From IMG/VR virus record IMGVR_UViG_3300036770_007283: DNA of 64,000 bases. One strand, written 5' to 3'. Position numbers and translations under genes: made by a program. Numbering within the stretch: position 1 is the first letter of the stretch; every line of letters begins with the position of its first letter. Below, piece after piece: positions 10,971 to 49,600 of this stretch. The stretch comes from a virus (lineage: Duplodnaviria > Caudoviricetes). The notes beneath the pieces are model-generated. The model worked only from the letters and a program-made list of their open reading frames with translations. It ran no database searches and was not told the origin of the DNA.

Positions 10971-10979
10971 TGTAACTCC

Positions 10980-31391: not shown

Positions 31392-31394
31392 TAA

Positions 31395-31775
31395 TTACTC
31401 CAATTCTTCTTGGTAAGTTTCTGTTTCTTCAAGATTAGATTCTTTTAGCTTATTAAGATCTTTCATAGCTGAAATAATAAACTTAGATACATTAAAATTG
31501 CAATCTTGATCACAATTTAATCCAGAAAGTTTGTTTTCTTCCAGGCAGGTTTCTACCTTTTTATTACAAGTTGTACAATCAAACTGAAAAGGCTTTCTCT
31601 TATCTAGACGAACAATATCGCCACGCTGTTTCATGCTTAATTTTACAAATTTTGATACTGGAACTATTTTTGAACAAAATTCACAAATTACTTCATCCAA
31701 ATCGACATCTAATGAGGCATTTGTTGTAATTCTTTTTCCAGGACAACCAGGTAGACAATTAATAAGCATTATCAC
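31395..31775 (-). CDS. Cys-rich putative zinc-binding protein
   Basis: CLPGC, CEFC, CTTC and CDQDC motifs; 3 nt upstream of the primase. Confidence 0.6.
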   Translation of the reverse strand: MIMLINCLPGCPGKRITTNASLDVDLDEVICEFCSKIVPVSKFVKLSMKQRGDIVRLDKRKPFQFDCTTCNKKVETCLEENKLSGLNCDQDCNFNVSKFIISAMKDLNKLKESNLEETETYQEELE

Positions 31776-31793
31776 TCTCCCATATTAATAGAA

Positions 31794-32957: not shown

Positions 32958-32973
32958 ATATCAACTCCTTAAT

Positions 32974-34629
32974 TTAGTGTTTGTGATTTAGGCCAGTTTC
33001 ATTTGGTAAGCGATACCCCGCAACTGGTTGCCAGCCAGATTGCTTAAAAGGATCATCTGCAATAACAGCATCTGTGGTTAGAAGTAGATGCGCAATGCTA
33101 ATGGCATTTTCTAGTGCAGTTCTGGTTACCTTCTTTGGATCAATGACGCCCATTTCAATAAGGTCACCAAAATTCTCAGTAGCAGTATTATACCCATAAT
33201 CTACTGTGCCAACTTCTAGTTCACTTAAAATTTCTTGTGGATCCAAACCTGCATTAAGGATAATCTGAGCAGCAGGCGCCCGACAAGCATCAATTAAAAC
33301 CTCTGCGGCTGGATGCAAAGCGAATGGTAATGATTGACGCATTTTAATTCTAGTCTCTTCTGCAGCGTGCCAAAGAGCATGGCCACCACCAACAACATAA
33401 CCCTCATCAATGGCTGCTTTGACAGCAAAAACTGCATCTTCTACGCGGTCACCCTTCTCCCTTAGCTCTAGCTCTGTTGCATAACCCACGGTAATAACAG
33501 CAACCTTGCTACTTAGGAAACCAAGGCGATCCCTAATATCCTTATGCTCTGTATCGCCCAATGGATGCTTTAACCATTCACGATAGTGAGAAACCTTCTT
33601 ATTAACCAATCCTTCATTTTTATTTGGGCCAATAATTTTAGTTTTGTAACTTTCTACAATAACTCTATTAGCATGACCAAAATGTGAAAGATCAAAGTCG
33701 GAAAGTGGAATGCCAAAATCACCACCAACAATAGTTGACCCAGTAAGTGCAGCAAAGTCTTCCAACCATTCCTTACGGTTTTTGCCGAAGTTAGGAATTT
33801 TGATAGCACAAACATTTAATCTACCTGCTTGAAAATTGGTGGTAAAAAATCCAAGCCCTTCCTTTTTAAGATCCTTGCAAAGAAGTAGGATTTCACCCTG
33901 AGTTCCTGCGATCTTCTTCATAGCATTTTGAAAATCTGTTTCTGCGTGCGTAGTGATTTCATAATCAAAGATTAGAATTCTTACATCATTGAGTTCCCGC
34001 TTCGACTCATCCTTGTTAAGGAAGCTTTGTGAAATGTAGCCAGAGTCTAATTCAATACCATCAATAACCCGAACTGAATTAGGTACGCCTGGCATTGCCT
34101 CTGCGGTAATCAAGCCTTCCCTATTTACTGCAATATAAGCTTCTGCAATAACACGACCTAAATCAGGATCATTATTGGTAGAAATAGTTGCAATATGGTG
34201 CAGCGATTGATCATCACTTAGTGGCTTTGACATCTTGGAAAGCTCATCCAAGATAGAAGTTTTGGCCCAATCCATACCTTTTCTAAAGTTTAAAGGACTG
34301 TAGCCTGAATTCATTAGCTGTAATCCTTGCTTAAAGATAGCATGTGTTAAAACTGTTGCAGTAGTGGTTCCATCACCTGCAACTGCCGCTGTACGACCCG
34401 CGGCTTCCTTTACTAACTGACAGCCAAGCTCTTCGATGGGATCATCTAAGACCACCTCTCTGGCTACTGAAACACCATCCTTGGTAATGGTTGGCGCCCC
34501 AATCGTTCTACCAATAATTACATTCTTGCCACGAGGCCCCATAGTTACTTGAACAGTTCTGGTTAGTTTTTCAACACCAGTGAGTACTTTTTGTCTAGCG
34601 TCATTTCCATATTCTAATAGTTTTGCCAT
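32974..34629 (-). CDS. groEL: GroEL-like chaperonin
   Basis: VTMGPRGKNV, ITKDGVSVARE, AGDGTTTATVL, AAIDEGYVVGGG, MGVIDPKKVTRTALENA. Lacks the C-terminal GGM tail. Confidence 0.95.
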   Translation of the reverse strand: MAKLLEYGNDARQKVLTGVEKLTRTVQVTMGPRGKNVIIGRTIGAPTITKDGVSVAREVVLDDPIEELGCQLVKEAAGRTAAVAGDGTTTATVLTHAIFKQGLQLMNSGYSPLNFRKGMDWAKTSILDELSKMSKPLSDDQSLHHIATISTNNDPDLGRVIAEAYIAVNREGLITAEAMPGVPNSVRVIDGIELDSGYISQSFLNKDESKRELNDVRILIFDYEITTHAETDFQNAMKKIAGTQGEILLLCKDLKKEGLGFFTTNFQAGRLNVCAIKIPNFGKNRKEWLEDFAALTGSTIVGGDFGIPLSDFDLSHFGHANRVIVESYKTKIIGPNKNEGLVNKKVSHYREWLKHPLGDTEHKDIRDRLGFLSSKVAVITVGYATELELREKGDRVEDAVFAVKAAIDEGYVVGGGHALWHAAEETRIKMRQSLPFALHPAAEVLIDACRAPAAQIILNAGLDPQEILSELEVGTVDYGYNTATENFGDLIEMGVIDPKKVTRTALENAISIAHLLLTTDAVIADDPFKQSGWQPVAGYRLPNETGLNHKH

Positions 34630-34898
34630 TATATCTTCCTAAATATTTCTAGGTTAAAAAATATTACCTCTTGAAGAGGAATGGGTAATTTATCAATTAA
34701 TTCTTCTAGTGATACATAATAATTGTTATTATAAATCCAATCACCAGAATAGTTGTTAAGAATTGTTCCTTCCGAAAAAGTTATCTTGGTATGAAACTTA
34801 AGATATACGCTTCCGGAAGTATTTGTAATAATCTTCTTTGGATAGTTTGGATAAGCCTGCGGAATTATTTCTATTTGAAATGTAATCGCTTCTTTCAA
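34629..34898 (-). CDS. Small hypothetical protein
   Basis: 89-aa ORF coupled to the RuvC-like gene and groEL. Confidence 0.5.
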   Translation of the reverse strand: MKEAITFQIEIIPQAYPNYPKKIITNTSGSVYLKFHTKITFSEGTILNNYSGDWIYNNNYYVSLEELIDKLPIPLQEVIFFNLEIFRKI

Positions 34899-35449
34899 GG
34901 TTTACTCAATTTGCTATGCTCCAGATAATATCCCAGAGCCACGATTATAGAGTCTGCTTCGTCGTAGCACTCTTTTTTAATATTACCTGCACGATTATTC
35001 TGCGTCAAAAAATTATTAAACGTTTTCTTACAGAAGTTTAAAACATCTTCTTTATCATCAATATTGCAACTATATTTTGTTTTAACCAATTTTCTAAGTG
35101 AAGTCACTGGCATCCTAATTGGCTTAGACTTAAGAACACGGTATGTTGCCAGCCCGCAGACCTCATTGAAAGAAGATAATATTAAGATAGTATTTGCCGA
35201 GCTTTTACCTTTTGAAAATTTCTTCGCATAATCTTCGATGGCTACAACATCTGGTTTTTCTTTTTGAACTAAATTTGTTATAGCATCAAAAGCGTAATTT
35301 AGCCTAAAAGAAAAATTATCATCAGATTTTTTCTTTGAAGTAGGTTTGATGTGACCATAAGTTTTTAATCTAATATCCTGACCTACTTCCACTTCTAATA
35401 TTGACCAACCTATCGTAGCGGAAGATATATCTAAACCTAATATCAACAT
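34895..35449 (-). CDS. RuvC-like Holliday junction resolvase
   Basis: MLILGLDISSATIGWSI, VAIED, and DEADSIIVA (RNase H fold D-E-D-D pattern). Confidence 0.85.
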   Translation of the reverse strand: MLILGLDISSATIGWSILEVEVGQDIRLKTYGHIKPTSKKKSDDNFSFRLNYAFDAITNLVQKEKPDVVAIEDYAKKFSKGKSSANTILILSSFNEVCGLATYRVLKSKPIRMPVTSLRKLVKTKYSCNIDDKEDVLNFCKKTFNNFLTQNNRAGNIKKECYDEADSIIVALGYYLEHSKLSKP

Positions 35450-35480
35450 AAAGACTCCTAGAGTCTTTATGTTACCAAAT

Positions 35481-35527
35481 AAAAAAACCTAATTCACACG
35501 TGCGTGTGCGTGCGCGTGTGAATTAGG
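35481..35527 (-). terminator. Rho-independent terminator after the SSB gene
   Basis: 13-bp stem CCTAATTCACACG/CGTGTGAATTAGG, 14-nt loop, then TTTTTTT on the minus strand. Confidence 0.8.
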
Positions 35528-35545
35528 CTTGGTTCAAATTAACTA

Positions 35546-36211
35546 TCAGCTCTCGAAATTGAAGAAATCATCATCATCATTGGATTGCTGCTTTGACTTA
35601 GCACCACCCTTAGAATCAGCCTTGGGCTTGGTGGACTCGCCTTCACCCCAACCCATGATTTCACGAACAGATTCTGGTGAAGTAGGTTGTGTTAGCTTTA
35701 GCATATCGACACGATCATTAAACTTGTTAAAATCTTCACGGAAGGATGATTCCAGTGGTGATTTTGGTCGTGGAGTTACACGATAAAGTGGCTGTGTTCC
35801 AGGAGTTCCTCGTTCAATGGTAATATCGTAACCGGTTACTGGACCCCAATCTTCATCAAGATAAAGAGTCTTAATTCCGTTATAAATTTGGCTACCAATT
35901 TCAAGAAGTTTGAATTCGTTATTGGCACGATCCAAAACTTTGATCATCCAGCGTGGACGACGCTTAAAACCAGCATCCTCTAGTTTTCTAACTAACTTAG
36001 CATCACCAATTGGTGAGTTTACCTTACGCTTTTTACCATCTGGTGTATCGAGCCAGTGAATATAGAATTGAACTGGATTACCCATAATACGAACACGAGA
36101 CTTACCAACATCTAACTTCATAAAGTCATTCTTCATGCCAGAGGCTGCAGAACCTTCGCTAACATCACCTGAATTCCAATCAATTTCACCAAATACTACA
36201 TCTGAACCCAT
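35546..36211 (-). CDS. Phage single-stranded DNA-binding protein (gp32-like)
   Basis: FMKLDVGKSRVRIMG...HW, KLLEIGSQIY, GYDITIER..YRVTP, and an acidic tail DDDDFFNFES. Confidence 0.75.
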   Translation of the reverse strand: MGSDVVFGEIDWNSGDVSEGSAASGMKNDFMKLDVGKSRVRIMGNPVQFYIHWLDTPDGKKRKVNSPIGDAKLVRKLEDAGFKRRPRWMIKVLDRANNEFKLLEIGSQIYNGIKTLYLDEDWGPVTGYDITIERGTPGTQPLYRVTPRPKSPLESSFREDFNKFNDRVDMLKLTQPTSPESVREIMGWGEGESTKPKADSKGGAKSKQQSNDDDDFFNFES

Positions 36212-36293
36212 GTTTCTCTCCTTTGTTGTTGTTGTTTTGTGCTTGACTATTTAAGGCTTAATGCCATTGACGTCTTTGCTATTGTGTTATTGG

Positions 36294-36881
36294 CTATTCC
36301 TGCCATTTAATTTCGCCACAAATGTCATCCTCGTCTCTTTCTTTTTCATCATCATAACCAGGAGGACCATAACCCGACTGGCGACGTGCCGAGCTAACCT
36401 CTTCTTTATACCCACCCGCCTGGAAATTTCCAAGCGTCTCTAGTGAGTAATCTCTCTTTAAGAAAGTCTTGAAGGCGTAATGCCATCCCAAAAAATAATC
36501 TGCTTTATTTTCTAACCATTTCTTTGCTGCCTTAGCAATAGCAACTTCATTACAAGCATCAATATAGTCATCATCAGCCTGAGCAAACCATTCTTTATTT
36601 TTCACTACCTTATGACCTGCCGAATTAGCCTTCACTAGTGCGGCATTAGTCCAAGCTTTAGATCTGGCACCCTCCTTTATAGAAATCAACCTATCAACTT
36701 TTGCAATCAACTCTTGACAAATATTTTGCGCATGAAGCGTCATCACCAAGCCACGCTCTGCGATATTTAGATCCATCACACCGTTTCTTGGAAGCCAATC
36801 TGATACATTATCAATTTCTGTTGTATCAATATCTTCGACGGAAAAATTATCAATCCTGATTTTTTCTCTAAAAGTACCCAT
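36294..36881 (-). CDS. Possible UvsY-like recombination mediator
   Basis: Long helical protein with FAQADDDYIDA...KWLENKADYF, adjacent to SSB. Similarity is by recollection only. Confidence 0.35.
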   Translation of the reverse strand: MGTFREKIRIDNFSVEDIDTTEIDNVSDWLPRNGVMDLNIAERGLVMTLHAQNICQELIAKVDRLISIKEGARSKAWTNAALVKANSAGHKVVKNKEWFAQADDDYIDACNEVAIAKAAKKWLENKADYFLGWHYAFKTFLKRDYSLETLGNFQAGGYKEEVSSARRQSGYGPPGYDDEKERDEDDICGEIKWQE

Positions 36882-36889
36882 TTAAAACC

Positions 36890-37183
36890 TCACCTATCTT
36901 TCATTTCAAGTTTTGCAACCTTGGCTTCGAGCATGGCAATCTTTTCTACCCAGGAATCCAACTTTCGCAACTTTTGATTGTACATTAAGTTTAATAAAAA
37001 GAAGATTAAAATCATTGCAGTAGGTTGGTTAGCCGGTGGTGTAACAGAAATAATATCACCATCCTGATCTGTTACGAATAATCCAACAAACGCTTCCTTT
37101 CCAAAACTTTTCTCTAACTCTAGATAGTATTCAAATTCTTCTTTTGTAAGATTTAACTTTTGATTGGCAATTGCCTTAATCAT
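36890..37183 (-). CDS. Hypothetical protein
   Basis: 97-aa coupled ORF with a hydrophobic patch and a C-terminal coiled coil. Confidence 0.55.
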   Translation of the reverse strand: MIKAIANQKLNLTKEEFEYYLELEKSFGKEAFVGLFVTDQDGDIISVTPPANQPTAMILIFFLLNLMYNQKLRKLDSWVEKIAMLEAKVAKLEMKDR

Positions 37184-37713
37184 CAGGTACTCCTATTGAT
37201 ACCCTTGAACCCACCACGCTTAGAATGAATCGGTGCCTCTTTTCCAAGATTAGGGTTGGTTAAAACCCTCTGTTGATGTAACTTTCTTAGTCGCTCAGCC
37301 TTGTTAGATAAATCTTCTGGTAGAACATTACCATCATCATCTAACTGATCTAAGTGTTCTGCGTATTCTTTTTCAATCTCACTACGAATATCATCCTCTT
37401 CAACATAGTCAGATTCTTCAGAAGTGGCAATCACCTGACGGGCTGGTTTAGCACTTAAAGAGATATCTTCTAAAATCTGCTTCCCGATCCCACCCTTTAA
37501 TTCATTAAAGAAGAATAAAGAAATGTCATAAATCTGTGATTCGGTGAAAGAAGAAGAAAAACGTTCGGCACTAATTTTGTTCTGAATTAAAGTAATAATA
37601 TTGGTGTCACGATTTGAAAAAAGGCTAGAACCACAAGAAGGGCATAAATTCTTCATCAAGGCAAATCGCATTGATTCGTTAACGCCAAAACCACATTCAT
37701 TACAGTGCATCAT
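37183..37713 (-). CDS. Zinc-ribbon hypothetical protein
   Basis: N-terminal CNECG...CPSCG; 4-bp overlap with dnaE-C. Confidence 0.6.
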   Translation of the reverse strand: MMHCNECGFGVNESMRFALMKNLCPSCGSSLFSNRDTNIITLIQNKISAERFSSSFTESQIYDISLFFFNELKGGIGKQILEDISLSAKPARQVIATSEESDYVEEDDIRSEIEKEYAEHLDQLDDDGNVLPEDLSNKAERLRKLHQQRVLTNPNLGKEAPIHSKRGGFKGINRST

Positions 37714-38744
37714 ACTTTTTTTCCTAAGGCACTTTCAAGTAGGGAAAGTGACAAACCCTTTTGTTCCATATATTCATCTACCTTACAAATAGCCCTGATT
37801 GGTAAGCCGTCAGTTAGAACCGTCATATATTTATCATAATCATCTTGCCAAACGGTTAATTCGGCGGTGGAACCTTCTGCATCCTCGACTAAATACTTGG
37901 CAAATTTTCTACCTATATTTTTACCACGTTTAATTTTAAATTCCTTAACCATAGCCTTGATAATTACTTCAATCTTAACCTTAGTTCCAGAAGGAATCTG
38001 GGGGATCTTTCTCAATGGCGTAACATTAGAATCCTGCCGAAAGAAACCTTTGAAAACCTCATGGAGAGAACCGCTGATTGTTCTGCCCAAAACCTCTCTC
38101 TCGTTGGTGAGCAGATCCTTGCGCTCCCATTCTTCATGGTACGTAGGGAATACAATGTCATCAATAGTTTTTCCTTTCTTTTTTTCTTTATTGATCAAAT
38201 CACGATAATGTGAGTGGTTTTCAAAAATATCCTTTCTGGTTCTTCCAAAAGAAGTAAAAGCACCAGCCTTAGACATTGACTCCATGACTCTTTTATTTAC
38301 TACCCTTGCATTTGTTCTAAAGAAAAAATCCTCAATCGAAGCAAAGGGTTGCAATGAGATGATTTCTTGAATTGCAGTATCGCCAACACCCTTAATCGCT
38401 GTTAAGCCTGTAACAATAGTTCCATCTTCCTTGGTAACATAACTGCCGGTGCTTTTGTTAACATCTGGTGGGGTAATGGAAATGCCCATCTTGGAGCATT
38501 CGGAAATATATTCTAAGGTTTTATCAGAGTTAGGATCCTCGCTGTTAAGCAATGCACACATAAATTGTGTAGGATAATGACATCTCAACCAAGCAGTATA
38601 ATAAGAAATATGTGAATAAGAAACTGAGTGAGAATTAGAAGTAAGCATACCGTTAGATAAATAATATTGGTGATCAGGATGCTCTACTTCTAGATCATAA
38701 GTATCCATCATCCCAACTTCTTTTACTGATTTAATTTTAGCCAA
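37710..38744 (-). CDS. dnaE: DNA polymerase III alpha, C-terminal half, fused to a split-intein C-fragment
   Basis: After 37 aa of IntC the sequence continues SHSVSYSHISYYTAWLRCHYPTQFMCALL, PPDVNKS, HhH GLTAIKGVG, ERE.LG and an OB fold. TTG start with an AGGAGG RBS. Confidence 0.95.
   Translation of the reverse strand: MAKIKSVKEVGMMDTYDLEVEHPDHQYYLSNGMLTSNSHSVSYSHISYYTAWLRCHYPTQFMCALLNSEDPNSDKTLEYISECSKMGISITPPDVNKSTGSYVTKEDGTIVTGLTAIKGVGDTAIQEIISLQPFASIEDFFFRTNARVVNKRVMESMSKAGAFTSFGRTRKDIFENHSHYRDLINKEKKKGKTIDDIVFPTYHEEWERKDLLTNEREVLGRTISGSLHEVFKGFFRQDSNVTPLRKIPQIPSGTKVKIEVIIKAMVKEFKIKRGKNIGRKFAKYLVEDAEGSTAELTVWQDDYDKYMTVLTDGLPIRAICKVDEYMEQKGLSLSLLESALGKKV
38634..38744 (-). mobile_element. 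Split intein C-fragment (IntC, 37 aa)
   Basis: MAKIKSVKEVGMMDTYDLEVEHPDHQYYLSNGMLTSN|S: block F YDLEV..H, block G TSN, +1 Ser. Confidence 0.93.
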
Positions 38745-38752
38745 AAAACCTC

Positions 38753-39559
38753 CTAGTTTGGTTCTGGTGTCCCATTTATTTCTAGATTCAGAAATTCATC
38801 CATCTCTTCTGAACTAGTACTGGGTCCAAAAATTCTTTCGTTAGCTATTTTAATATACTTCTCTTCTTGTTCAATTAAGATAAAATCTCTATCTAAATTC
38901 TTGCAGGCTACACCCGTCGTTCCACTTCCCGCGCAATTATCTAAAACTATTTCCCCAGGGTTGGTATAAGTCTTTATTAAATATTCAAATAAAGAAACCG
39001 GCTTCACCGTAGGATGAGAACCGCTAGTATCGGTATTAAATTTCTGCCAAGAAGACGGGACCCTTAATTCTGGAACTTCGACAATACCACGGCCTTTGAA
39101 TTTTCTATAGTTTTCAGACCTGGTGTTATGATCTTTACGATATCGCTTTGTATGCTTCTTACCAGTGGCAGATGTTCTTTCCTGCATCTGCTTGTTATAA
39201 GTCCATTTTCCTCTTGAAAAAATTAGAACCTGCTCATGCTCTTTGAAAGGTTCTCTGACTGTATTTGCAAAATTACTTCCACGATTTTTAATCCAAATCC
39301 ATTCGTGACGAAACATCTTTGGGTTAGACATAACTAAAGCACTAGAAAAAGGTTGGGAAGCAGTCAGGGCTATAACTGCATTAGGTTTTGTAATTCTTTT
39401 ATATTGTTCCCAAAGTTTATCAAAAGGGATTACTGTATCCCATTTGTTTTGGGTAATTCCATAAGGTAAATCACAAAGAATCATATCTATGGAACCATCA
39501 TCTATCTTCTTCATTACTTCTAAGCAATCACCCTGATATATCTTGTTTTTTTCTAGCAT
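38753..39559 (-). CDS. DNA N4-cytosine/N6-adenine methyltransferase (beta class)
   Basis: IYQGDCLEVMK, ILCDLPYG, HPTVKPVSLFEYLIKTYTNPG, VLDNCAGSGTT. Its stop codon overlaps the dnaE-C RBS. Confidence 0.92.
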   Translation of the reverse strand: MLEKNKIYQGDCLEVMKKIDDGSIDMILCDLPYGITQNKWDTVIPFDKLWEQYKRITKPNAVIALTASQPFSSALVMSNPKMFRHEWIWIKNRGSNFANTVREPFKEHEQVLIFSRGKWTYNKQMQERTSATGKKHTKRYRKDHNTRSENYRKFKGRGIVEVPELRVPSSWQKFNTDTSGSHPTVKPVSLFEYLIKTYTNPGEIVLDNCAGSGTTGVACKNLDRDFILIEQEEKYIKIANERIFGPSTSSEEMDEFLNLEINGTPEPN

Positions 39560-39678
39560 TTCAAAATCCCGTAGGTTAGGTATAGCTAGTATACCTAGAG
39601 CAATCCTAATATTACTCTATTTTTAGAACCAAGTTTGGAAAACTTAAACCAACTTCATTTATACTCAAAAATATATTT

Positions 39679-40932
39679 TTATTGAACTATTCTTAGCTTA
39701 GTTGTGCTGACGTTAGTTATTTCACAATCTTGTTCTTCATCACCACGAGGTACCTGGCTTGATAATCCAGAAGCTAAAGTAATGTTGTGATTGCCATTAG
39801 CGTTAATAACATCAGCAACTATAGAACCATAAAAAGAAGCATTGCCATTTGGGTAGACTGTTGATTCTGGTGCATAAATGGTTCCATTAAAAGTGCTAGA
39901 GCCATTTATTCTAACTACTCTTTCACCAATAACCCTTATCTCAAAACACTCCGGATGATCTGCATTGCCAGTAACACCACCATTTAAATTTACATTACCA
40001 TTAACATATAAAATGGTTGGACTAGTACATCCATCAGATGTGCCAGAAATATTAATCATTTCTCTTGCCGTTCTTTGCTCCAAATCACCATCAACATAAT
40101 AAACTTCACCTTCTTGAAGTGTAGTGACTATAGTTGTATTAGAACCCCTACCCACACGAACACCATTAGGTAGGGCATGATAACTTTCAGGATAATCCAC
40201 TGGACTGATTGGAATTTCCATACCCATAGGTGTAGAGTCGCCTGTGAAGTTATAAGCAGAACCCCTAGAGTCTATGCAAGGGGTTCCTACATCATATTCA
40301 CAATCTGGACCCATATGAATATCTATTCCGTTTTGTACATTAAGACTACCGCCCAAAGTTATCCCACCGGAGTTAGTACAAGCAGATGCGCCGGCAGTTA
40401 CCTCATCTATTCTTAGATCAAAATTTCCACTTAGTTCCAATTGAGAATTGGCAAAGATTAAGCAGGGCCAATCACCATCGTTAGTAGGGACACACTCTTC
40501 TTCTAAGGTAGCAACCTTACCAGCAATAGAAGTTGCATGAACATGGTAAGTATAGTATCCAAACATTCCACCAAATATAGATGGAATATTGGATTCTGTA
40601 GTTATTTTTACATAATCACCATTATCCATATCTAAGATCCACTCACCACCTTGATTAAAGGTACCAATTTCAGTGGTAACATTTTCAGAGGTTATAGTGG
40701 CTCCATAGACGGTATGGCTTGTAGCAATAGAGGTTGCTTCTTCAGATACAGTAGTAGTGTTATTACTACCATCATCTTCACTGCCAAGATAGGCGGCGGA
40801 AGAAATTGCGGAAGTATCTGCGGCAGTTTGCAACTGCGCCTTAGAATAAGTCATAAGACCATAATCTATGGAAAGCGCTGCAAATCCAATAAATATGGGA
40901 AGTGAAATACTAAAATAAGTAGCAGTAGACAT
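39679..40932 (-). CDS. TadG/TadE-like pilin-domain protein with C-terminal beta-rich domain
   Basis: N-terminal FSISLPIFIGFAALSIDYG...AQLQTAADTSAISSA matches the Tad/Flp pilus-assembly N-terminal domain. C-terminal FNGTIYAPESTV...FYGSIVAD repeats. Confidence 0.8.
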   Translation of the reverse strand: MSTATYFSISLPIFIGFAALSIDYGLMTYSKAQLQTAADTSAISSAAYLGSEDDGSNNTTTVSEEATSIATSHTVYGATITSENVTTEIGTFNQGGEWILDMDNGDYVKITTESNIPSIFGGMFGYYTYHVHATSIAGKVATLEEECVPTNDGDWPCLIFANSQLELSGNFDLRIDEVTAGASACTNSGGITLGGSLNVQNGIDIHMGPDCEYDVGTPCIDSRGSAYNFTGDSTPMGMEIPISPVDYPESYHALPNGVRVGRGSNTTIVTTLQEGEVYYVDGDLEQRTAREMINISGTSDGCTSPTILYVNGNVNLNGGVTGNADHPECFEIRVIGERVVRINGSSTFNGTIYAPESTVYPNGNASFYGSIVADVINANGNHNITLASGLSSQVPRGDEEQDCEITNVSTTKLRIVQ

Positions 40933-40990
40933 TTTGTATACCTAGAATTTGTTATTTATAGTTACAATAAATATTGAAAAATATTCTTTT

Positions 40991-42205
40991 TCAAGATTTA
41001 ATCTCTGTTTTCTGGGCAACAGGGACTATACACTCCTGTTCTAAAGGTAACCAATAAAATCCTGTTCTATTAATCCCCTTTAATCGTTGTTCCCTGCTAA
41101 TTGCAGGCAACTGAAGGGCAATATTCTGGGATGCATTTAAATCCGAGTTTCCTGTGTATCCACAGGATCTGCATTTAAATAACAATCCTTTCCTATTCCC
41201 CTTACGAACCCAACCGCACTGGAAACACCTTTGACTTGTGTAAGTAGGGCTAACCTTAATAATCTGGACACCAGCATCTTTAAGTTTAGAATCCAACTTT
41301 TCAAATAGTTCCCTGTAATTCCAATGAGAAAGGTTGCGGCTTGACTTTCTTCCCTTTCTCATATTTCTAATGTTCTCCCTTCTAACTACCTTTATATTCT
41401 GTATATTCAGTCTGTTTACAGACCAATTTATGTAGTTAGTACGGTGTGCTTCTGCTCTCCTAAATCCCTTGGAACCCTTTTTCTTCCTTGCTAATTTTTG
41501 ACAAATAGCTTTGTAATTGTGACCATGGTTATCCTTGTCAACTACTTGACCATTTGAACAAGACAAAATAGAATTTTGCCCTATATCTATCCCTAGGGTT
41601 TCCCCAGATTCCCTTTCTCTAGGTTCCTCCAATTCAAAACCAAACGTTATGGAATCTTTTGATAACCTAACTCCTGCTTTTAGTGTTCCTGAGGCTAACA
41701 TTTTATTGAAGTGCTTTGTTTTCTTAAAAGGTATCTTTATAGTTAGCTTATTACCAAGAGAAGATAGGGTTACCCAACCATCGAAGATGGTATCATTATC
41801 CAAGTCTATTTTAACAAACCTAGAATCTAACTCTGGTTTAATATCTCCAACTAAAGGCTTTGAAGCAATATTTTTGTTATAGATTTGCTGAATTTTTCTG
41901 GCTTTCTTAAACATACCTTGAGCATTGAACTTATTTATTTGCCAAAGCCTTCGGCTTTGTTTAGCTTTAGTTCCACGGACAATAGCAGAAGCCTGTTTAC
42001 CAGCAGCTTGCAATGCTCTTGCAGATAACCAAGTTTGAATCTGGGAAGTTATTCTCTTATCAAGCAGGGCAGGAATTTTATCCATATCCCAAAGGGGATC
42101 TATGAAAAGGGTAGTAACCCTCTGGTATTCTGCAATAAAAAGGGAAAGGTTTTCCATTTTAACCTTTCTGCAGAATTTGGTAGTTACTTTAGTTGACTTT
42201 ACCAT
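40991..42205 (-). mobile_element. tnpB: TnpB-family RNA-guided nuclease without an adjacent transposase (IS1341-like/solo tnpB)
   Basis: RuvC-I GIDIG, RuvC-II RRENI, zinc finger CFQCG...CRSCG, RuvC-III NSDLNASQNI. All three acidic catalytic positions are present. Confidence 0.9.
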
Positions 42206-42264
42206 GATTTATATAGAAATATTACTATAATTTTAAATTTATTTTAATAAATAATATAAAGGAA

Positions 42265-42723
42265 TCAAATACATTCTTCAGAGCAGAAGTTACCCTCTTC
42301 ACCACATACTATAAAAGTATTAGGAATTACACCTTTACATTTATAAGTCTTCATTTTTTTAGTCCATTCCTCTTTGGTTTGGCATTCTTCTAAGGAAATT
42401 AATAAAGCCTCCACTTCGTTGGTTTCTTTTAAAATAAAAGTCATCCAGCCTTGGAAGTTACCAACCCGCCAAACATTTGCACCGAAATGGTAAGCATACA
42501 AATCTTCTTTTTGAAAGTGTTCCCTATTTAATTTTATTAAGCCACCTAATGTAGCATGGTCACTGAAGTCTGGAATGGCACCATCCGGTGGCAACAAGCC
42601 TTCATCATTAATCCTACCACAAATATTTATATCAAGTGGAAAAAACCAACGCATACCTGGCAACCACTTCCAATTCTTACAGATTAAAGTTTTGAGTCCT
42701 AAATCTATTTTGTCTTGCAGCAT
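42265..42723 (-). CDS. Hypothetical protein
   Basis: 152 aa; CKNWKWLPGM...PDFSDHATLGGL pattern typical of phage accessory ORFs. Confidence 0.55.
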   Translation of the reverse strand: MLQDKIDLGLKTLICKNWKWLPGMRWFFPLDINICGRINDEGLLPPDGAIPDFSDHATLGGLIKLNREHFQKEDLYAYHFGANVWRVGNFQGWMTFILKETNEVEALLISLEECQTKEEWTKKMKTYKCKGVIPNTFIVCGEEGNFCSEECI

Positions 42724-42749
42724 GTTATTTATCTTTTGTCCAAATTATT

Positions 42750-43070
42750 TTAGTTACTATCTAATGCTGCTCTAACTGCTGCATCTTTAGATTCTAGCAA
42801 TTTTCTAAGTGCAACTTCTGTTTCAGGGCTATAAGGCGCTCGTCTAGCAACTTGTTCGGCCAACTCAGCAAATGGTCTTGAAACCTCTTGTAACTTTGGT
42901 GGTAAATGATCAAATTTGAAATATTTTAAAGTTGGTGATAATTGGTATTGACTATAAACAACCAAATCATTTAAAGTCGGTACTGGCATAGAAACCATAA
43001 CCTCACCAGAACGAACCTTGGCACATCCATTTGCCATACAATCTGGATTTGCACAACAGCATGTAATCAT
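42750..43070 (-). CDS. Small helical-hairpin protein with Cys-rich N-terminus
   Basis: YFKFDHLPPKLQEVSRPFAELA...ETEVALRKLLESKDAAVRAAL; GAGG RBS. Confidence 0.6.
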   Translation of the reverse strand: MITCCCANPDCMANGCAKVRSGEVMVSMPVPTLNDLVVYSQYQLSPTLKYFKFDHLPPKLQEVSRPFAELAEQVARRAPYSPETEVALRKLLESKDAAVRAALDSN

Positions 43071-43115
43071 ATAAACTCCTCCCTTTAAATTGTTTTACAA
43101 ATTAAACTAAGATTT

Positions 43116-43433
43116 TCATCCATAATGTTCGCTATTTTTAATTGCTGTAATTATATCTTCATAAGCAGCAGCGCACAGCGGAATGTCAGCAGATTCCATT
43201 CTTTTGTTGAGAAATTCTAAGATTAATTTTCTCTCTCGCATTTCTCCCAAAACCTCACTGGCTTCTGGTGGTGGCCAAGACGATCTTGCTTCATAATCCT
43301 GAATTATATTATCTGCTTTGCTTACTAGTTGCCAGACCCATTCTGCTGCAAACTCTTTATCCTCCAGCCTAAGAAAAAACTCCTCAATAAAATCATCTTT
43401 TGTGTACAGCATAACACCCTCACTTATTAACAA
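43116..43433 (-). CDS. Hypothetical protein
   Basis: Likely start at the ATG at 43412 (GAGG RBS), just after the dnaE-N stop. Confidence 0.55.
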   Translation of the reverse strand: MLISEGVMLYTKDDFIEEFFLRLEDKEFAAEWVWQLVSKADNIIQDYEARSSWPPPEASEVLGEMRERKLILEFLNKRMESADIPLCAAAYEDIITAIKNSEHYG

Positions 43434-46074
43434 CTATTTCTAATTTATCTTCTAAAATTTTCCAGAGCGGCAACATTTCGCCTGTATTAGTTCTAAATTT
43501 ATGATTGATTGTACAAACTGTTTTTGAGCCATCGTCTAATTCTACTTCAAATACTTTTAATTTTCCGTGATAATGATTATCCTTGACAGGGATCATAATA
43601 TCTTGTCCCGTTTCTTCATTTCTGCTACGAACCCAACAGCCTGGTTCAACATTTCTGATTGGAATATCTTTCCACTCTCTAGCATCAGAATCTCTGTATA
43701 CCCGGATTAATTCATCAAACTTCAAGGAGCGATTAAAGCCATATAATCCGAATGGTTCGATTTGCTCATCCCAAATTCTTTTGGCTTCTTCATATTTCAT
43801 ACCAGATACTTTCATGCAGTCAGCAATAAAGTTAGCCTCTGTTTTTAAAACTAGATCTGGATCTTTACCTTTTAATTTTGTAATTTTCCTTAGTGCATCT
43901 GCTTGGTTAAGATCCCAACCTGCACAATCCTTGGCAATGGTCATCATGCCTTCTTCATAAAGAGAAACACCATAAGTCTTCTTTAATGAATTTTCCATTT
44001 TAGGATGGATGTATTCGATTTCTTCTACTCCAAGTTTTCTGTTGATATAATCGTTCCTCTGTTCTGGTGAACAAGAAGGTCTGCCTAGTGCATTAATGTC
44101 AGAAATTTCTTCAATATTTTTTGGCTTAATCTTCATACAAAGTGGGGTAAGTGATGACTCCAATTGAAAGACGCCGGCAGTTTCACCACGTCCAATCATT
44201 TTAAAAGTTTCTGTATCACCTAAGGGAATATCTTCAATAGTTATTTTTTTACTTTTGGTTTCTTGAATTATATTAAAGGTATCAGTAATTACGTTTAATG
44301 TATTTAGACCAAGAAGATCCATTTTAACTAGACCGAAATCTTCGCACCTAGTTTTCTCCCATTGGGTAACCACCAAGCCGGTTTCTGCATCAATTCTAAG
44401 GGGGACAATCTCGTATAGTGGACGATCACTAATTACAACCCCAGCGGCATGAACACTCCAATTCCTTGTCAGTCCTTGAAGCTTGCAGGCATTTTCATAT
44501 AGTTCTGGATATTTCTTCATATATGAAGCAAACTCTTTACTTTCTTTCATTGCCTGTTCTACTGTCTCTGTATCTGGCATGATAGAAGTTAAATGATTTG
44601 CAATTTTAAAGGCTTCTGATTTATCACCACCTAGCTCTAGACTTCTAGCTACGTCTTTAATAATCACCTTTGGTGACAGTGTAGACCAATTGCTGATGGA
44701 AGCGACTTTATCTTCCCCATATTTTTCTTTCAGATATTCTTTCACCTTGGCCGGGTCTGCGAAGTCTGAGTCAATATCTGGAAAGCTTTTCTTTTCTTTA
44801 TTCTGAAATCTTTCAAACAGGAGGTCGTACTTAATGGGGTCAACTGTAGTGATGCCAGTTAAAAATGCAACAATAGAGCCGGCACAACTTCCTCTTGCAG
44901 GCGAGCAAGGCATTCCTTGTGACTTAGCCCAATTTACGAAGTCTGCCACAATAAGCATATAAGAAGAAAAGTTTTTCTCTTCCATTACACTTAATTCTTT
45001 TTTAACCCTATCCCAGTATTCTTTCTTCTGTTCATCTTCTAGATGGCCTAATTTTTCTTTAAATCCGGCCATACATTTATATCTCAAATAGGACTTATCT
45101 TCTTCTATATCAGGACAAACCTTGGAAGACCAACCCTTAAATTTTTGATATTCGTTTTCTTTTTGAACTGGAAACTTAGGAAGAATCGCACCCTTTGGTT
45201 CAATATAGGTAGGATTATCACAGGCGTTTAAAATCTTGATAGAATTCTCCATGCCTTTCTTGGCAACATCTGGACCAAAGAAGGATGTAATTTCTTCATA
45301 TGTTTTAAGGTACATATCTTGCACGCCATAACGAAATCTATCAGGATCGTTGATTGGCTTTTTGTCTTTAATAGCTAACATAAAATCGTGATACTTGGCA
45401 TGGTCTTTATCTCGATAGTGGGCATCACAAGTAATAACATAGGGGATGCTCTTATCATGCGATAGTCGAATCATTGCTTCATTTAGCTTTCTCTGGCTAA
45501 CTTCCTTGCCAGTTTTGCCTGTAGCCTGGAGGTCATGTGGCTGGATTTCAAGAAAGAATCTATCTTTAAAAATAGCATTAAATCGATCAAGATAACAAAG
45601 AGCTTCTTGCTCATTTCCTTCTGTAATTAAAGTTTTGGCAATCAAACCATTAGAACAAGCGGTAAGGGCAATAACACCCTGGTTGAACTGCTCGATATGT
45701 TCCCAAGAAATTCTGGGCGTTTGTTTACCCATATACCCAGAGACTTGGTTGCGGTAAGCCTCATAATTTAGTCGTAGAATATTTCGATAACCTACTTCAT
45801 TTTGTGCAAGTAGAACAAGGTGATAATTCTTCTTATCAGATAGATCTGGTGCGAAGTACGCCTCCATACCTGGAATTAACTTAACGCCATGCTTCTTACT
45901 TGCTTTCCAAGCATCAAAAATAGCTGTCATAGTACCATGATCTGTGACTGCTACGCCTGGATGATCTACTTCTTTAGCGCGAATAAAAAGGTCTTCCACA
46001 TCATTCATACCATCCAAAGGTGAACCCAATTCAGTATGGTTGTGCAAAGACACAAATGGTCCTGAAATACCCAT
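43420..46074 (-). CDS. dnaE: DNA polymerase III alpha, N-terminal half (PHP + palm + fingers), fused to a split-intein N-fragment
   Basis: PHP motifs LHNHT, TDHG, CDAHY; RGSCAGS; catalytic PDIDSDF; HAAGVVI; KMDLLGL. The extein ends LYGFNR at aa 782. Confidence 0.96.
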   Translation of the reverse strand: MGISGPFVSLHNHTELGSPLDGMNDVEDLFIRAKEVDHPGVAVTDHGTMTAIFDAWKASKKHGVKLIPGMEAYFAPDLSDKKNYHLVLLAQNEVGYRNILRLNYEAYRNQVSGYMGKQTPRISWEHIEQFNQGVIALTACSNGLIAKTLITEGNEQEALCYLDRFNAIFKDRFFLEIQPHDLQATGKTGKEVSQRKLNEAMIRLSHDKSIPYVITCDAHYRDKDHAKYHDFMLAIKDKKPINDPDRFRYGVQDMYLKTYEEITSFFGPDVAKKGMENSIKILNACDNPTYIEPKGAILPKFPVQKENEYQKFKGWSSKVCPDIEEDKSYLRYKCMAGFKEKLGHLEDEQKKEYWDRVKKELSVMEEKNFSSYMLIVADFVNWAKSQGMPCSPARGSCAGSIVAFLTGITTVDPIKYDLLFERFQNKEKKSFPDIDSDFADPAKVKEYLKEKYGEDKVASISNWSTLSPKVIIKDVARSLELGGDKSEAFKIANHLTSIMPDTETVEQAMKESKEFASYMKKYPELYENACKLQGLTRNWSVHAAGVVISDRPLYEIVPLRIDAETGLVVTQWEKTRCEDFGLVKMDLLGLNTLNVITDTFNIIQETKSKKITIEDIPLGDTETFKMIGRGETAGVFQLESSLTPLCMKIKPKNIEEISDINALGRPSCSPEQRNDYINRKLGVEEIEYIHPKMENSLKKTYGVSLYEEGMMTIAKDCAGWDLNQADALRKITKLKGKDPDLVLKTEANFIADCMKVSGMKYEEAKRIWDEQIEPFGLYGFNRSLKFDELIRVYRDSDAREWKDIPIRNVEPGCWVRSRNEETGQDIMIPVKDNHYHGKLKVFEVELDDGSKTVCTINHKFRTNTGEMLPLWKILEDKLEIVVNK
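43423..43728 (-). mobile_element. Split intein N-fragment (IntN, 102 aa, Ser1)
   Basis: Begins SLKFDELI, has IPIRNV, VFEVELDDG and block B CTINHKF, and ends LPLWKILEDKLEIVVNK-stop. No endonuclease. Confidence 0.92.
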
Positions 46075-46132: not shown

Positions 46133-46159
46133 ATGGGCCGCCTTATTTTGGCGGCCCAT
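46133..46159. terminator. GC-rich hairpin terminator upstream of dnaE-N
   Basis: 10-bp stem ATGGGCCGCC/GGCGGCCCAT with a 7-nt loop; T-rich flanks on both strands. Confidence 0.75.
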
Positions 46160-46610: not shown

Positions 46611-49600
46611 TTACAGAAAATTGGGGTTGATCCTCACATCTTCGAGTCCGGGCAGCCCCAACGATATTATCATACAAAGTAGCTCTTTCTTCCTCAAATT
46701 TACTTTATTAAAATCTTCGCTGTAGCCTAAGAAGTCATTTGCTTCATTTTCATTATCTTCATCGTCTAGGGTAGCAATTATATAATCAATATATGCTCTT
46801 AAGTTTTTTCCCATAGTAGTGTAAAAGGTACCTACCGTTTTTAAAAGACTACCCGGTTTGGTGGGTGAGGTACTTCTTCCAGCATTAGCAAAGTCATTTA
46901 TATTAGCAATACGACCCCCTGAACCGGCTGGATTAACATATCTTATCACTGTGCCGGCATCATTATCATCATTTTGGATAATATCAAAATATTTTCCTGG
47001 TGATCTAAACCATTTTTTAAGTCTATCACTTACAGAGCTCAACTCTGGCGGGGTTCTTTCTGCAAAGATTGAATTTACTGTATTTTGTATATAAAACTTT
47101 CCTTCTGGAACACCACCCTCTGCTTCGGAACGTGGAACCATTTTTTCAAACAGATCTTCAACTGTTAATCCGGTACTGGATCTTTTTTCTTTTACACTTG
47201 GAATCTCGCTAAAAATACCAGCAAGTTCATCTAGTCCAAATACAGAAACAATAAATCTTAGCAATCTTTGTTTTTCATCATCATCTAGTTCTGCTCCACG
47301 AATAATTGGATTTTTGATTATCTTATAACAAGTAATCGGATCCTCTAGTGTAACTCTTACATGTGGATATTTTATTTTGGGATCTTCTTTCTTAAAGAAA
47401 GATTCGCCACTAATGATGCTGGCAGGCATATTTTTGATAAAACTTACTGTTTTATCAAGCTCACTTTTAATTTCTTTATATAAATCAGTCTCTGCTGCTT
47501 TCTTATCCCTTTGAAGCATCTCCTCTAATTGTTCAGAATGCTCTATAATTAGATCTTCTAGGTCGGCAACAGAATAAGAATATAGGCTTTGCTCACCTGA
47601 ACTTCTACCTATTCTGATCAAAATAGAAATATCCAGTGGTTTATCTTCAAAATTCACTACAATACGCCTGCCTGTTAGAATGACACCCTTGGAATCGCCA
47701 AGATTAGTCTCTTTCTTTTGTACATCTAAGGGTATATTAAAACCTACCCAATTCCAAGTTGTTTCACTGCGAGTAGGTGGCCAAGCAATTTGTGTTGATG
47801 CCCTAGGTGTTCTTGTACCAATTTGATGTCGGCTGGTATTTAGCCCAGTCATTGGGGAATCTGGTGATTCCTTATTAGTATAAAAGTTTAGTTTTTTAAA
47901 CTTATACTTCAGGCCTTCGGCTGTAAAGTTATCATTAATAAATTTTAAATAGTTCAAGTCCTCGGAGTTAGTGTCAAGTTGATTGTACAGACCAATAAAA
48001 TTATCTATTTTAGTTTTAAATATACTATCTATAAGTCCCTTTAATTTTGTAGAAAGATCATCAAGTATAATATCATGATAACGTTTTATTTCAGCATTAT
48101 CGCTAGTATTCATATAATTTATTAATTCTGAAAATGATTCTTCCCCACCTTTTTCAAATAATTCAAACACTTTCTCTTTAAATGCTTCTGTAAAAATAAT
48201 ATTCTCATCAGCAAGTAATTTTTTAATAGCAAAATCAAGCAAATTATTATCTTCATCCTCTTCCAAACCCAGGGCCAATATTAGCTTTTTTTGATGTGAT
48301 GGATTTTGAGAGATTGCCATTAAACATTCAAAAATATTATTTTTATGTGCTGCTACATCTTTTTCTTCACTAGAATCATCAAGCTTCATATAATGTTCTA
48401 TTAGCTTTGACCATCCTACCGAGGTAACGCCAAGCTCATTGTTTAGATGATAGTCAATAGCGCTTCTGCGATCCTCAAATATTTGATATTTTCCTTCTGA
48501 GCCGTAAACAGTAAAGCGCTCCTCTTGCTTTAGATAATCCAATATACTTGACGGATTTTCTCTGTCTACAAAAGGAATCCAATCCCAACCAAAGACTGTT
48601 TCGCTATATTCGCCTGGAATAAAATTCAACGTTGTAACTGGCATTATGCTATTAACGGTATTTAAGGCGGTTGATACCAGTGCGCTTTGTGGAGCCTCAG
48701 AATTCATCGCCCTTAATCTTCCCAAAATATATTCTTTTGCAGCAAGCAAATTATCAGTATCAAATATCTCTGTATTGATAACATCCACTATGTTGTTAGT
48801 CGTTTCAGTAGGAGGTGATATTGATTTGCTTAGCTCAAAATAAGCCATATCTAGGTTAGTGCAATATTTTCTATATTTATTGGTTAATTTTCTTAATTTA
48901 GAATTATCTTTTTTCTTTTCATTAATAAGCTCATTATGTTGATTTCTCAATTCATTAATAGCAAGCTCTAGCTCTCCCTTAATATTCTCGAGCGATTCCT
49001 TAACAAGAGTCTCTATTTCTTGTGATGTTTTATCACCACTTAAAACAGTTAAAATATCATTAACATAATCATCTGGAATACTTATTCCACAATAATAATT
49101 CGACTCCTCATCGTATCCAAAATACTTAGAGATAATTTCATTTAGTTTCTTAATTATATTTATGACATAGACAACAGAAAGTATGGCATTGTTTTGTCTA
49201 GCAGTCTTAATCGCAGGCAATGCCTTGGCTTTATCATGTGTACCTTGTAAGAATTTTGTGAATTTATTCTTATCTAAATTTAAAGTTGTCAATAACAAGG
49301 AGGTTGCTTCTTGTAACACATTAGAAGACTCTATTTCTTGTATACTTATCTGTTCTAAAAAGGTAACCCAAGACCTATTTGGGTCACCCTCATCATTGGT
49401 AACAGAGTCAATATTTTGTATGACCTCATTGACTGCAATAATTGCTTTTTTAATTGCAGTAGTCAAAATTAACTTTGACATAGATTCATCAAAGGTAAAG
49501 CTACTGATATCAAAAATATTTTGCTTTATCCAGATTCCAATCTCACCAGTTATTTTTTCAATCTCTTCTATAATTTTATTACCAAAGAATTGATTGTAAA

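Follow-up and report, generated by a model that had tools for sequence, protein, structure and literature searches.

A variable multi-gene island between the two halves of a phage dnaE gene fractured at a predicted split intein

In the stretch of viral DNA considered here, 64,000 nucleotides (nt) of the IMG/VR record IMGVR_UViG_3300036770_007283 that are referred to as the window, the DNA polymerase gene dnaE is found in two pieces, each of which carries one half of a predicted split intein, and an island of six further open reading frames (ORFs) lies between them. Comparison with related loci suggests that this gap has gathered and exchanged genes within a single phage clade. The parent record is 177,932 bp long, with a CheckV completeness of 52%, and because the genomes of its relatives measure 316-395 kb (the 395-kb genome is complete, the 316-kb genome 94% complete), the window phage is an uncultured jumbo phage. 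Without exception, the long ORFs of the window lie on the minus strand. The GenBank phage collection contains no close relative, its top DnaE match being 35% identical. The features of the locus, with lengths in amino acids (aa), are given below in the order in which they are read on the minus strand; loci used for comparison are denoted by L and a number.

43420-46074, minus strand: dnaE-N, 884 aa, with PHP, DNA_pol3_alpha and finger domains (Pfam, PHROGs)
43729..46074, minus strand: extein of dnaE-N, residues 1-782, last residues GFNR
43420..43728, minus strand: N-terminal intein half (IntN), 102 aa and stop codon, with Ser1 (SLKFDEL...) and block B TINHKFRT
43116-43412, minus strand: orfA, 98 aa, the ATG at 43412 being the likely true start, as in L001
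42750-43070, minus strand: orfB, 106 aa, an N-terminal four-Cys knuckle and a C-terminal helical hairpin of about 60 aa
42265-42723, minus strand: orfC, 152 aa, a phage-only family with the motif KNWKW..GMRW...IPDFSD.ATLG
40991-42205, minus strand: TnpB, 404 aa, solo and of the TnpB/Cas12f kind (Cas12f1-like_TNB)
39679-40932, minus strand: TadG-like pseudopilin, 417 aa, with a hydrophobic motif of the Tad/TadE type at the N-terminus, then DUF7305 and a beta-rich part like that of adhesins
38753-39559, minus strand: N6-adenine DNA methyltransferase, 268 aa, orphan, beta class, N6_N4_Mtase, CcrM-like
37710-38744, minus strand: dnaE-C, 344 aa, with HHH_6 and OB domains (Pfam)
38634..38744, minus strand: C-terminal intein half (IntC), 37 aa, TTG start, with block F TYDLEVEHPDH and block G GMLTSN including the terminal Asn
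37710..38633, minus strand: extein of dnaE-C, 307 aa and stop codon, starting SHSVSYSH (Ser+1), with HHH_6 and OB

The original prediction, made from the sequence without database searches, had described 4675 bp with six co-directional ORFs between IntN and IntC, and its coordinates and strand were confirmed, the order from dnaE-N to dnaE-C being orfA, orfB, orfC, TnpB, TadG and methyltransferase. Its naming of the last three, next to three small ORFs, was borne out by Pfam and PHROGs. Both ends of the island are as tight as had been proposed: the first cargo gene abuts the dnaE-N stop, with the orfA ATG 7 nt past the TGA, and the methyltransferase TAG overlaps the AGGAGG ribosome-binding site that precedes the dnaE-C TTG start at 38744. 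An alternative TTG start of orfA at 43433 would give a protein of 105 aa (43116-43433).

The two dnaE pieces together account for one continuous polymerase. Residues 7-783 of the N piece reach position 794 of the DnaE profile phrog_405, and residue 37 of the C piece takes the match up again at position 793, so that it is continuous across the break. In addition to the matched parts, the N piece ends in 102 further residues and the C piece begins with 37. Among 32 IMG/VR loci related to dnaE-N, the majority have an uninterrupted dnaE, and these intein-free relatives read GFNK|SHS (...GFNK-SHSISYS...) straight through the split site. In split alleles IntN is placed after K/R and IntC before S, so that the spliced product would restore the GFN(K/R)-SHS motif of the uninterrupted homologues. 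The hallmarks of a class 1 (HINT) intein are all present, namely a Ser/Cys nucleophile, a TxxH block B, a terminal Asn and Ser+1. Seven alleles were aligned: position 1 is Ser (Cys in one allele), the block B His is invariant (7/7), and the terminal Asn and Ser+1 are kept, as they are in more than 40 tblastn matches. None of the Pfam intein models scored over threshold on the window pieces, and the intein was assigned by motifs and position. Judged by its sequence, the split site is a genuine intein insertion point, which we take to lie a few residues further along the FNKSH motif than that of the cyanobacterial DnaE intein.

Within the 178-kb record dnaE occurs once, and neither PolA nor PolB was found there. 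The dnaE-N extein is 62-92% identical to those of relatives. When the window is compared with L001 at the amino-acid level, identity amounts to 92.6% in the N extein, 74% in IntN, 84% in IntC and 80.5% in the C extein, and the C half of the window is equally distant from all members of its clade. The dnaE halves may have had different histories, with recombination at or near the island. Many relatives also carry a second dnaE insertion, of 0.37 to 1.3 kb, at about residue 395-400 of the N extein (for example L019:284-657; L022:7633-8848; L023-L025:11203-12524; also L040, L049, L056, L058 and L067). These insertions are probably further inteins, both mini and endonuclease-bearing, and since this second site recurs in many relatives, the phage dnaE family seems to be an intein hot spot. 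In the Rossellomorea phage phiT1 (GenBank PV767480.1), a cultured phage, the DnaE match falls in two pieces within 10590-12981. Each piece bears its own annotation as 'DNA polymerase III subunit alpha', a hypothetical protein is annotated among them, and this may be another fractured dnaE.

A search with the IntN alignment yielded 44 distinct other IMG/VR loci with the same intein at the same site. Their arrangements are as follows.

Contiguous mini-intein, not split: 3 of 44 loci
Split, gap 47-163 bp: 8 of 44 loci, no gene, 3 of the 8 holding endonuclease remnants of 49-59 aa
Split, gap 0.45-0.49 kb: 3 of 44 loci, no gene identified; L003 has a 139-aa ORF that matches no family
Split, gap 0.86-1.2 kb: 27 of 44 loci, one ORF, which in 26 of the 27 belongs to the same endonuclease family
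Split, gap about 2 kb: 2 of 44 loci, a larger endonuclease (phrog_559/3339)
Split, gap 3.5 kb: 1 of 44 loci (L001), seven genes

The endonuclease family of the 26 loci joins a Ros/MucR-type zinc finger to a DUF559/Vsr-like domain (phrog_9084/559), and examples with the endonuclease only include L002, L022, L027 and about 24 more; two loci of the cargo clade described below have an endonuclease of this build as well. Likening them by description, we take this family to be the Vsr-like family of free-standing endonucleases that was reported together with a split intein at three phage-like DnaE loci (Dassa et al. 2009, NAR 37:2560; PMC2677866), and loci with a gap of 0.86-1.2 kb show the arrangement which that paper calls a 'fractured gene'. 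The claim that metagenomic fractured genes typically hold a free-standing endonuclease agrees with these counts, as 29 of the 44 loci hold just one and 26 of these are Vsr-like. Within the window gap, neither an endonuclease ORF nor a remnant of one was found (E below 0.1). Over the DnaE tree the presence of intein and endonuclease is scattered, with 8-11 changes needed.

Nine loci, the window included, form the clade in which the gap holds several genes. They were found through relatives of TadG and, in two further cases, of orfB, and their gaps span 1.3-7.4 kb with 4 to 9 genes. Cargo families were assigned by all-against-all BLASTP, and orfA, orfB and orfC of L192 by alignments. From dnaE-N to dnaE-C, the contents are as follows.

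Window, gap 4675 bp: orfA, orfB, orfC, TnpB, TadG, methyltransferase
L001, gap 3526 bp: orfA, orfC, orfB, TadG, TadE, orfC paralogue, FeoA
L176, gap 3975 bp: endonuclease, orfB, TadG, TadE, orfA, orfC, FeoA
L177, gap 2885 bp: orfB, TadG, TadE, orfA, orfC, FeoA
L178, gap 7439 bp: endonuclease, 936-aa reverse gene, orfB, TadG, TadE, orfA, ferredoxin-like, orfC
L179, gap 6018 bp: orfB, 935-aa reverse gene, TadG, TadE, orfA, 52-aa ORF, orfC, FeoA
L180, N half off the contig: ..., orfB-like, TadG, orfC, FeoA
L192, gap 4440 bp: orfB, 940-aa reverse gene, orfA, orfC, FeoA
Logan contig, gap about 1.3 kb: orfB, 94-aa ORF, 162-aa ORF, FeoA

An inherited core is recognizable in this list, consisting of orfB, orfA, orfC and usually FeoA. 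orfB is found in every clade locus, orfC in all that were read, with two paralogues in L001, and orfA in six of the seven clade gaps that were compared at first, as well as in that of L192; L192 and the Logan contig have core cargo without TadG/TadE. Variable in presence are TadG/TadE, the reverse gene of about 940 aa, the ferredoxin-like gene, the endonuclease, TnpB and the methyltransferase. Across the nine loci, presence thus varies for at least six gene families, and the order is shuffled too. An intact-looking endonuclease stands directly after dnaE-N in L176 and L178, and the other seven cargo loci have neither an endonuclease nor a remnant. Because the L176 endonuclease resembles those of canonical fractured loci (38% identity to that of L027 over 299 residues, E = 4e-68), the classic endonuclease arrangement is probably ancestral to the clade.

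In a tree of the DnaE-C extein (61 rows), the six cargo loci that were included form one branch, with a support of 97 in the Shimodaira-Hasegawa-like approximate likelihood ratio test (SH-aLRT). Its sister is L003, which is split with a 449-bp gap (SH-aLRT 99), and intein-free alleles come next. A scan of metagenome contigs with DnaE-C returned intein-free or distant loci only and no new clade member, and none of the core cargo genes occurs within 10 kb of an intein-free or endonuclease-only phage dnaE. Multi-gene cargo is confined to one clade, for which the tree points to a single origin.

The gap and its surroundings behave differently within the clade. When the window is set against L177, the 11 genes that follow dnaE-C downstream stand in the same order with none added or missing, whereas in the dnaE gap at least four genes differ, as does their order. 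The downstream block of the window (30189-37713, minus strand), a replication module that keeps strict collinearity with relatives, includes a Cpn60/TCP1-like chaperonin (32974-34629), RecA (31794-32957), a DnaG/Toprim primase-like protein (30624-31391) and a small sigma-70 region 4-like protein (30189-30623). As families come and go in the gap while the 11 downstream genes remain collinear, the gap appears to be a local hot spot of gene turnover within the clade. This claim is comparative rather than statistical, since changes in gene content also occur, rarely, in the flanks.

These results bear on the proposal that the split intein has turned the middle of an essential gene into a tolerated landing pad for accessory genes. 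Invariant content or unlinked halves would have told against it; the genes in the gap in fact differ from relative to relative, and every relative found has its two halves linked. The landing pad holds for one clade, in which the gap appears as a turnover hot spot, and does not extend to a general rule: the core seems to be inherited vertically under purifying selection, and most split alleles hold an endonuclease, remnants or nothing.

Two observations concern the reverse genes and their neighbours. The gene of 935-940 aa lies on the opposite strand in L178:1667-4477 (-), L179:653-3460 (-) and L192:466-3288 (-), and its sole family match is a weak SIR2-like stretch at residues 656-765 (E = 2e-4). 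In L178, the last 20 or so residues of the endonuclease (L178:670-1674) resemble the orfB C-terminus, with 55-64% identity and weak E-values, a resemblance which suggests that part of orfB travelled with the reverse-strand gene when it moved. An ORF of 2675 aa upstream of the dnaE unit (window 46611-54638, minus strand) shares no more than 27-34% identity with the corresponding ORFs of relatives, and that over parts of the sequence, so that it diverges much faster than the adjoining replication genes.

The expression signals of the locus are compatible with a single transcription unit. A terminator-like element lies upstream of dnaE-N:

46133..46159, minus strand: GC-rich hairpin followed by a T-run, with a 10-bp stem including 8 GC pairs, 58 nt upstream of the dnaE-N start

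This hairpin probably ends the upstream transcription unit, and no terminator of comparable strength was found within the island. Across the clade, the last cargo gene always lies 2-22 nt from the dnaE-C start. Given the tight spacing and the lack of a strong internal terminator, the cargo is probably transcribed together with both dnaE halves, and translation of dnaE-C would be coupled to that of the preceding gene; the 'one operon' of the original prediction fits these features. Among the data sets listed as containing the stretch, none is recorded as RNA. A candidate phage promoter motif, CTATAAATA in the AT-rich spacers, was rejected for lack of enrichment, with 43 matches against 42 expected. 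Repeats flanking the island or its genes are short and at chance level only. The 11-mer TCTAGGTATAC has exactly two copies in the 64 kb, both in the island and on the coding strand (minus): one at 40936-40946, just past the presumed right end of the TnpB element and upstream of tadG, the other at 39589-39599, upstream of the methyltransferase, where it is part of a small hairpin (GGTATA-CTAGC-TATACC). The pair may be coincidental, mark a regulatory site or be left over from recombination.

The cargo itself appears to consist of real genes under purifying selection, since for orfA, orfB and TadG the non-synonymous divergence from relatives (dN) is far below the synonymous divergence (dS), with ratios that are rough as dS is saturated. 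In orfA, which is 87% identical to its counterpart in L001, dN/dS is 0.03 with the same roughness. The C-terminal hairpin of orfB belongs to phrog_1761, a very widespread family of small phage proteins (3843 relatives), and is modelled by AlphaFold with a predicted local distance difference test score (pLDDT) above 90. It also exists as a stand-alone protein of 60-64 aa in thousands of phages, in arrays of small accessory genes. A language-model lead that this hairpin is that of Acb2/Tad1 found no confirmation: Pfam gave no match even at E = 10, a profile search of the PDB matched designed helical repeats only, and Foldseek, given the AlphaFold model, returned nothing from the PDB at E <= 0.001.

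The TadG-like protein matches PF13400 (28.2 bits, cut-off 22.3) and PF07811 (23.4 bits, cut-off 22.9), both at residues 2-46, and DUF7305 with 42.8 bits, above the Pfam cut-off. A pattern search for its relatives in IMG/VR gave no match; about ten relatives, at 47-59% identity, came instead from a protein database of 5.8 billion sequences, and all of those with readable context lie between dnaE halves. The gene stands within the phage replication module, with no tad pilus locus and assembly genes around it, and the only further Tad-type gene in relatives is TadE. There TadG is paired with the TadE-like protein, and a prepilin-type G/SQAVEF motif is seen in L001; the nearest cellular relatives are bacterial TadE-TadG pairs (distant homologue L181). 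It is a reasonable guess, and no more, that TadG/TadE interfere with host Tad pili, for example so that superinfecting phages are kept out.

The methyltransferase matches PF01555 (110 bits) and phrog_67 (E = 3e-74), with DLPY, a catalytic motif of the DPPY type, near the N-terminus and the AdoMet-binding motif AGSGTTG near the C-terminus, and its matches to CcrM-like NCBIfam models fall under the equivalog cut-offs. More than 580 relatives occur in IMG/VR phages, the best, at 74% identity, on an unrelated contig. Among clade members the gene is unique to the window, and no close relative was found in related genomes, including the complete 395-kb and the 94%-complete 316-kb genome. It occupies the slot of TadE...FeoA in relatives, and no FeoA gene is found elsewhere in the 178-kb record.

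TnpB is predicted to be an RNA-guided nuclease. Its RuvC Asp-Glu-Asp positions are intact, with GIDIG in the sequence and the Glu and Asp aligning with Cas12f and TnpB structures, as is the CxxC...CxxC zinc ribbon; the profile scores are 70 bits for PF07282 and 99.3 bits for NF040570, where the cut-off is 100. No TnpA gene adjoins it, the gene is single-copy in the 178-kb record and unique to the window among clade members, and a transposon in the sense of a TnpA partner or several copies is not seen. The nearest relatives, at 59% identity, are in other jumbo phages and elsewhere than in a dnaE gap. In two of them (L093, L094), an upstream ORF of 202 aa overlaps the TnpB start, and we presume from its C-terminus, which we read as that of an IS607-type serine recombinase, that it is a putative TnpA. 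DNA similarity to L093 and L094 covers the coding sequence and about 45 nt at its 3' end only, which leads to one further feature:

40930..41160, minus strand: candidate omega-RNA region, the tnpB 3' end followed by a conserved non-coding stretch of about 45 nt that runs to GTAACTATAAA (about 40950)

The 45 or so nt past the tnpB stop are conserved with L093 and L095 up to GTAACTATAAA only (three sequences), and the candidate region has a fold z-score of -2.6, that is, it folds somewhat better than shuffles. This conserved stretch fits an omega-RNA scaffold ending at the right end of the element and is regarded as a candidate. GTAACTATAAA lies about 18 nt before the tadG ATG, and the next 20 or so nt, the presumed guide, reach into the tadG ribosome-binding site. 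Rfam and transfer-RNA scans of 36-47 kb of the window gave nothing significant, and a left end of the TnpB element was not found, as the flanks have no homology to clade relatives. In the sequencing runs that contain the phage, nearly all listed variants lie inside tnpB (41372-42202); one stretch of 193 nt, for example, has 16 differences, of which roughly half fall on third codon positions. Certain contigs agree with the window on the side of orfC but depart from it at 42232 or 42150. The population seems to include either a further allele of tnpB or a variant that lacks this gene.

Taken together, these observations are best explained, at a probability of about three in four, by a fractured phage dnaE whose split intein tolerates a variable multi-gene island that originated in one clade and has since turned over. 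The two dnaE pieces, which encode the sole replicative polymerase found, would be rejoined after translation by a Ser1/Ser+1 split intein: IntN and IntC would associate, and an N-O acyl shift at Ser1, transesterification to Ser+1 and cyclisation of the terminal Asn would yield a DnaE of 1089 aa. Trans-splicing activity is expected here from established intein chemistry. Joining at the protein level would free the DNA between the halves from having to be continuous. The ancestor would have been a canonical fractured dnaE with an endonuclease, into which a small gene set (orfB, orfA, orfC, FeoA) would have been acquired once, in the common ancestor of the clade. Repeated gains, losses and rearrangements would have followed, in which the endonuclease was lost in most lines and individual members gained or lost TadG/TadE, the 940-aa reverse gene and the ferredoxin-like gene; TadE and FeoA are absent from the window, whose line would have acquired a solo TnpB and an orphan methyltransferase; the direction of the individual gains and losses is presumed from the distribution of the genes.

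Several points weigh against this reading. As the record is 52% complete, TadE and FeoA may have been relocated to the part outside it, where a further polymerase could also lie. The flanks are not fully rigid, as L176 has an extra ORF of 132 aa upstream of dnaE-N and L001 about 0.6 kb of extra spacing downstream. The DnaE-C tree was built by a quick method and midpoint-rooted, the clade has nine members in total, several of them on short contigs, and dS is saturated.

Among the other explanations, the one that survives best would add a reason for the persistence of the cargo and is compatible with the tolerated island. On this account, the cargo hitch-hikes on a gene drive, in which the endonuclease cuts the empty dnaE site at co-infection and repair copies the cargo by way of extein homology, so that the position is selected for better-than-Mendelian spread. 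The two of nine cargo loci that keep the endonuclease together with cargo (L176 and L178) speak for it, the scattering of intein and endonuclease over the DnaE tree is what homing predicts, and the drop in identity between the window and L001 from the N extein to IntN and the C extein hints at exchange tracts that end near the island. The single origin of the cargo clade, with no sign of cargo in other DnaE lineages, and the seven of nine loci, the window among them, that carry neither the endonuclease nor a remnant argue the other way, and co-conversion of 3-7 kb of heterology is hypothetical for this endonuclease family. We regard such a drive as unlikely, though worth keeping in view. An extension of it, in which split intein and endonuclease serve as a vehicle for accessory genes, with cargo co-converted into intein-free dnaE and the gap a selected address for counter-defence or host-manipulation genes, is quite unlikely; under it, the TnpB of the window may replace the self-preservation role of the lost endonuclease.

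It is very doubtful that the core cargo has a functional tie to replication or to when the polymerase is expressed, so that co-transcription would be useful and not merely tolerated. The core families are indeed missing from few clade members, if any, and are under purifying selection, and the last gene is always tightly coupled to the dnaE-C start, as such a tie would lead one to expect. In family searches no cargo family matches a replication function, though, the orfB hairpin has its relatives among arrayed small accessory genes and not beside polymerases, phages with an intein-free or endonuclease-only dnaE do without these genes nearby, and the gene order in the gap is shuffled. We give equally little credence to a one-off accident, a single illegitimate recombination followed by ordinary phage mosaicism that is no more frequent here than at other boundaries. 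The single origin of the cargo, its absence as a multi-gene set from 43 of the 44 other intein-bearing loci and the occasional indels in the flanks would all follow from it, but one junction that varies in at least six families and in order, next to 11 consecutive downstream junctions that show no change between the window and L177, would not. That the island was mis-joined to dnaE in assembly has next to no probability: the contig is metagenomic and De Bruijn contigs are interrupted near tnpB, in which variants cluster, but Logan contigs from three runs of one subsurface-metagenome study, possibly that of the source samples, tile every island junction with 0 differences, and the eight other loci, from different samples and assemblers, share the same architecture.

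The tolerated island, then, can be set beside known systems. It resembles the fractured genes of Dassa et al. (2009) in that a conserved motif is the point at which an essential replication gene is divided into adjacent co-directional ORFs, IntN first and IntC second, and in that the downstream half starts immediately past the last intervening gene (PMC2677866). Those loci hold the endonuclease, with one endonuclease-less locus, gp41-7 (gp41), whereas the window has none and carries six unrelated genes in 4.7 kb, and its relatives up to nine genes in 7.4 kb. According to the same source, the sites at which phage-like DnaE is fractured differ from the cyanobacterial site, and endonuclease loss was hypothesized to lead to an 'uncoupling' of the halves (PMC2677866). 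With the split DnaE of cyanobacteria (Ssp/Npu) and the PolB of Nanoarchaeum equitans, the locus has in common a polymerase in two pieces with half an intein each, trans-splicing being predicted here, and an IntN of about 100 aa with an IntC of about 36 aa. Unlike in those systems, where the halves are in distant loci (PMC2677866), they are here 4.7 kb apart on one strand, and the intein of the window has Ser1/Ser+1, as compared with Cys1/Cys+1 in the cyanobacterial one.

Furthermore, free-standing homing endonucleases are described as splitting phage genes without an intein, as in gp43 of Aeromonas phage and nrdA of Aeh1 (PMC2677866, PMC3045599). A mobile gene between the halves of an essential phage replication gene, with downstream expression coupled to the intervening gene, is common to those cases and the present one; they involve one endonuclease and halves that reassemble non-covalently, in contrast to the intein and the multi-gene island without endonuclease seen here. 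As in moron and variable-region hot spots and in TnpB-only derivatives of IS200/IS605 and IS607, accessory genes lie between conserved genes and differ among close relatives. Unlike in moron hot spots, the island lies inside the coding span of one essential protein, which is possible only via a split intein. No description of multi-gene cargo between split-intein halves was found in the literature searched, a body of limited coverage that includes parts of PMC2677866.

The family also adds dozens of natural Ser1/Ser+1 split-intein alleles with non-cysteine nucleophiles and matched intein-free sites, and non-cysteine inteins are wanted for protein ligation in oxidising conditions (PMC11923092, PMC13014065). 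As for the phages themselves, the known states of split inteins are halves that are adjacent with an endonuclease only, or halves that are far apart, as in cyanobacterial dnaE and Nanoarchaeum polB. The clade described here forms a graded series of endonuclease only, endonuclease with cargo, and cargo only, with gaps of 1.3-7.4 kb, and the cargo arrangement is plausibly the missing intermediate between endonuclease-only fractured genes and unlinked split-intein genes. The drift of the halves apart can now be addressed on real genomes, and cargo that rides on intein homing is a testable idea. The gene of a protein that is joined post-translationally would thus be able to gather and swap unrelated genes in its middle without loss of function.

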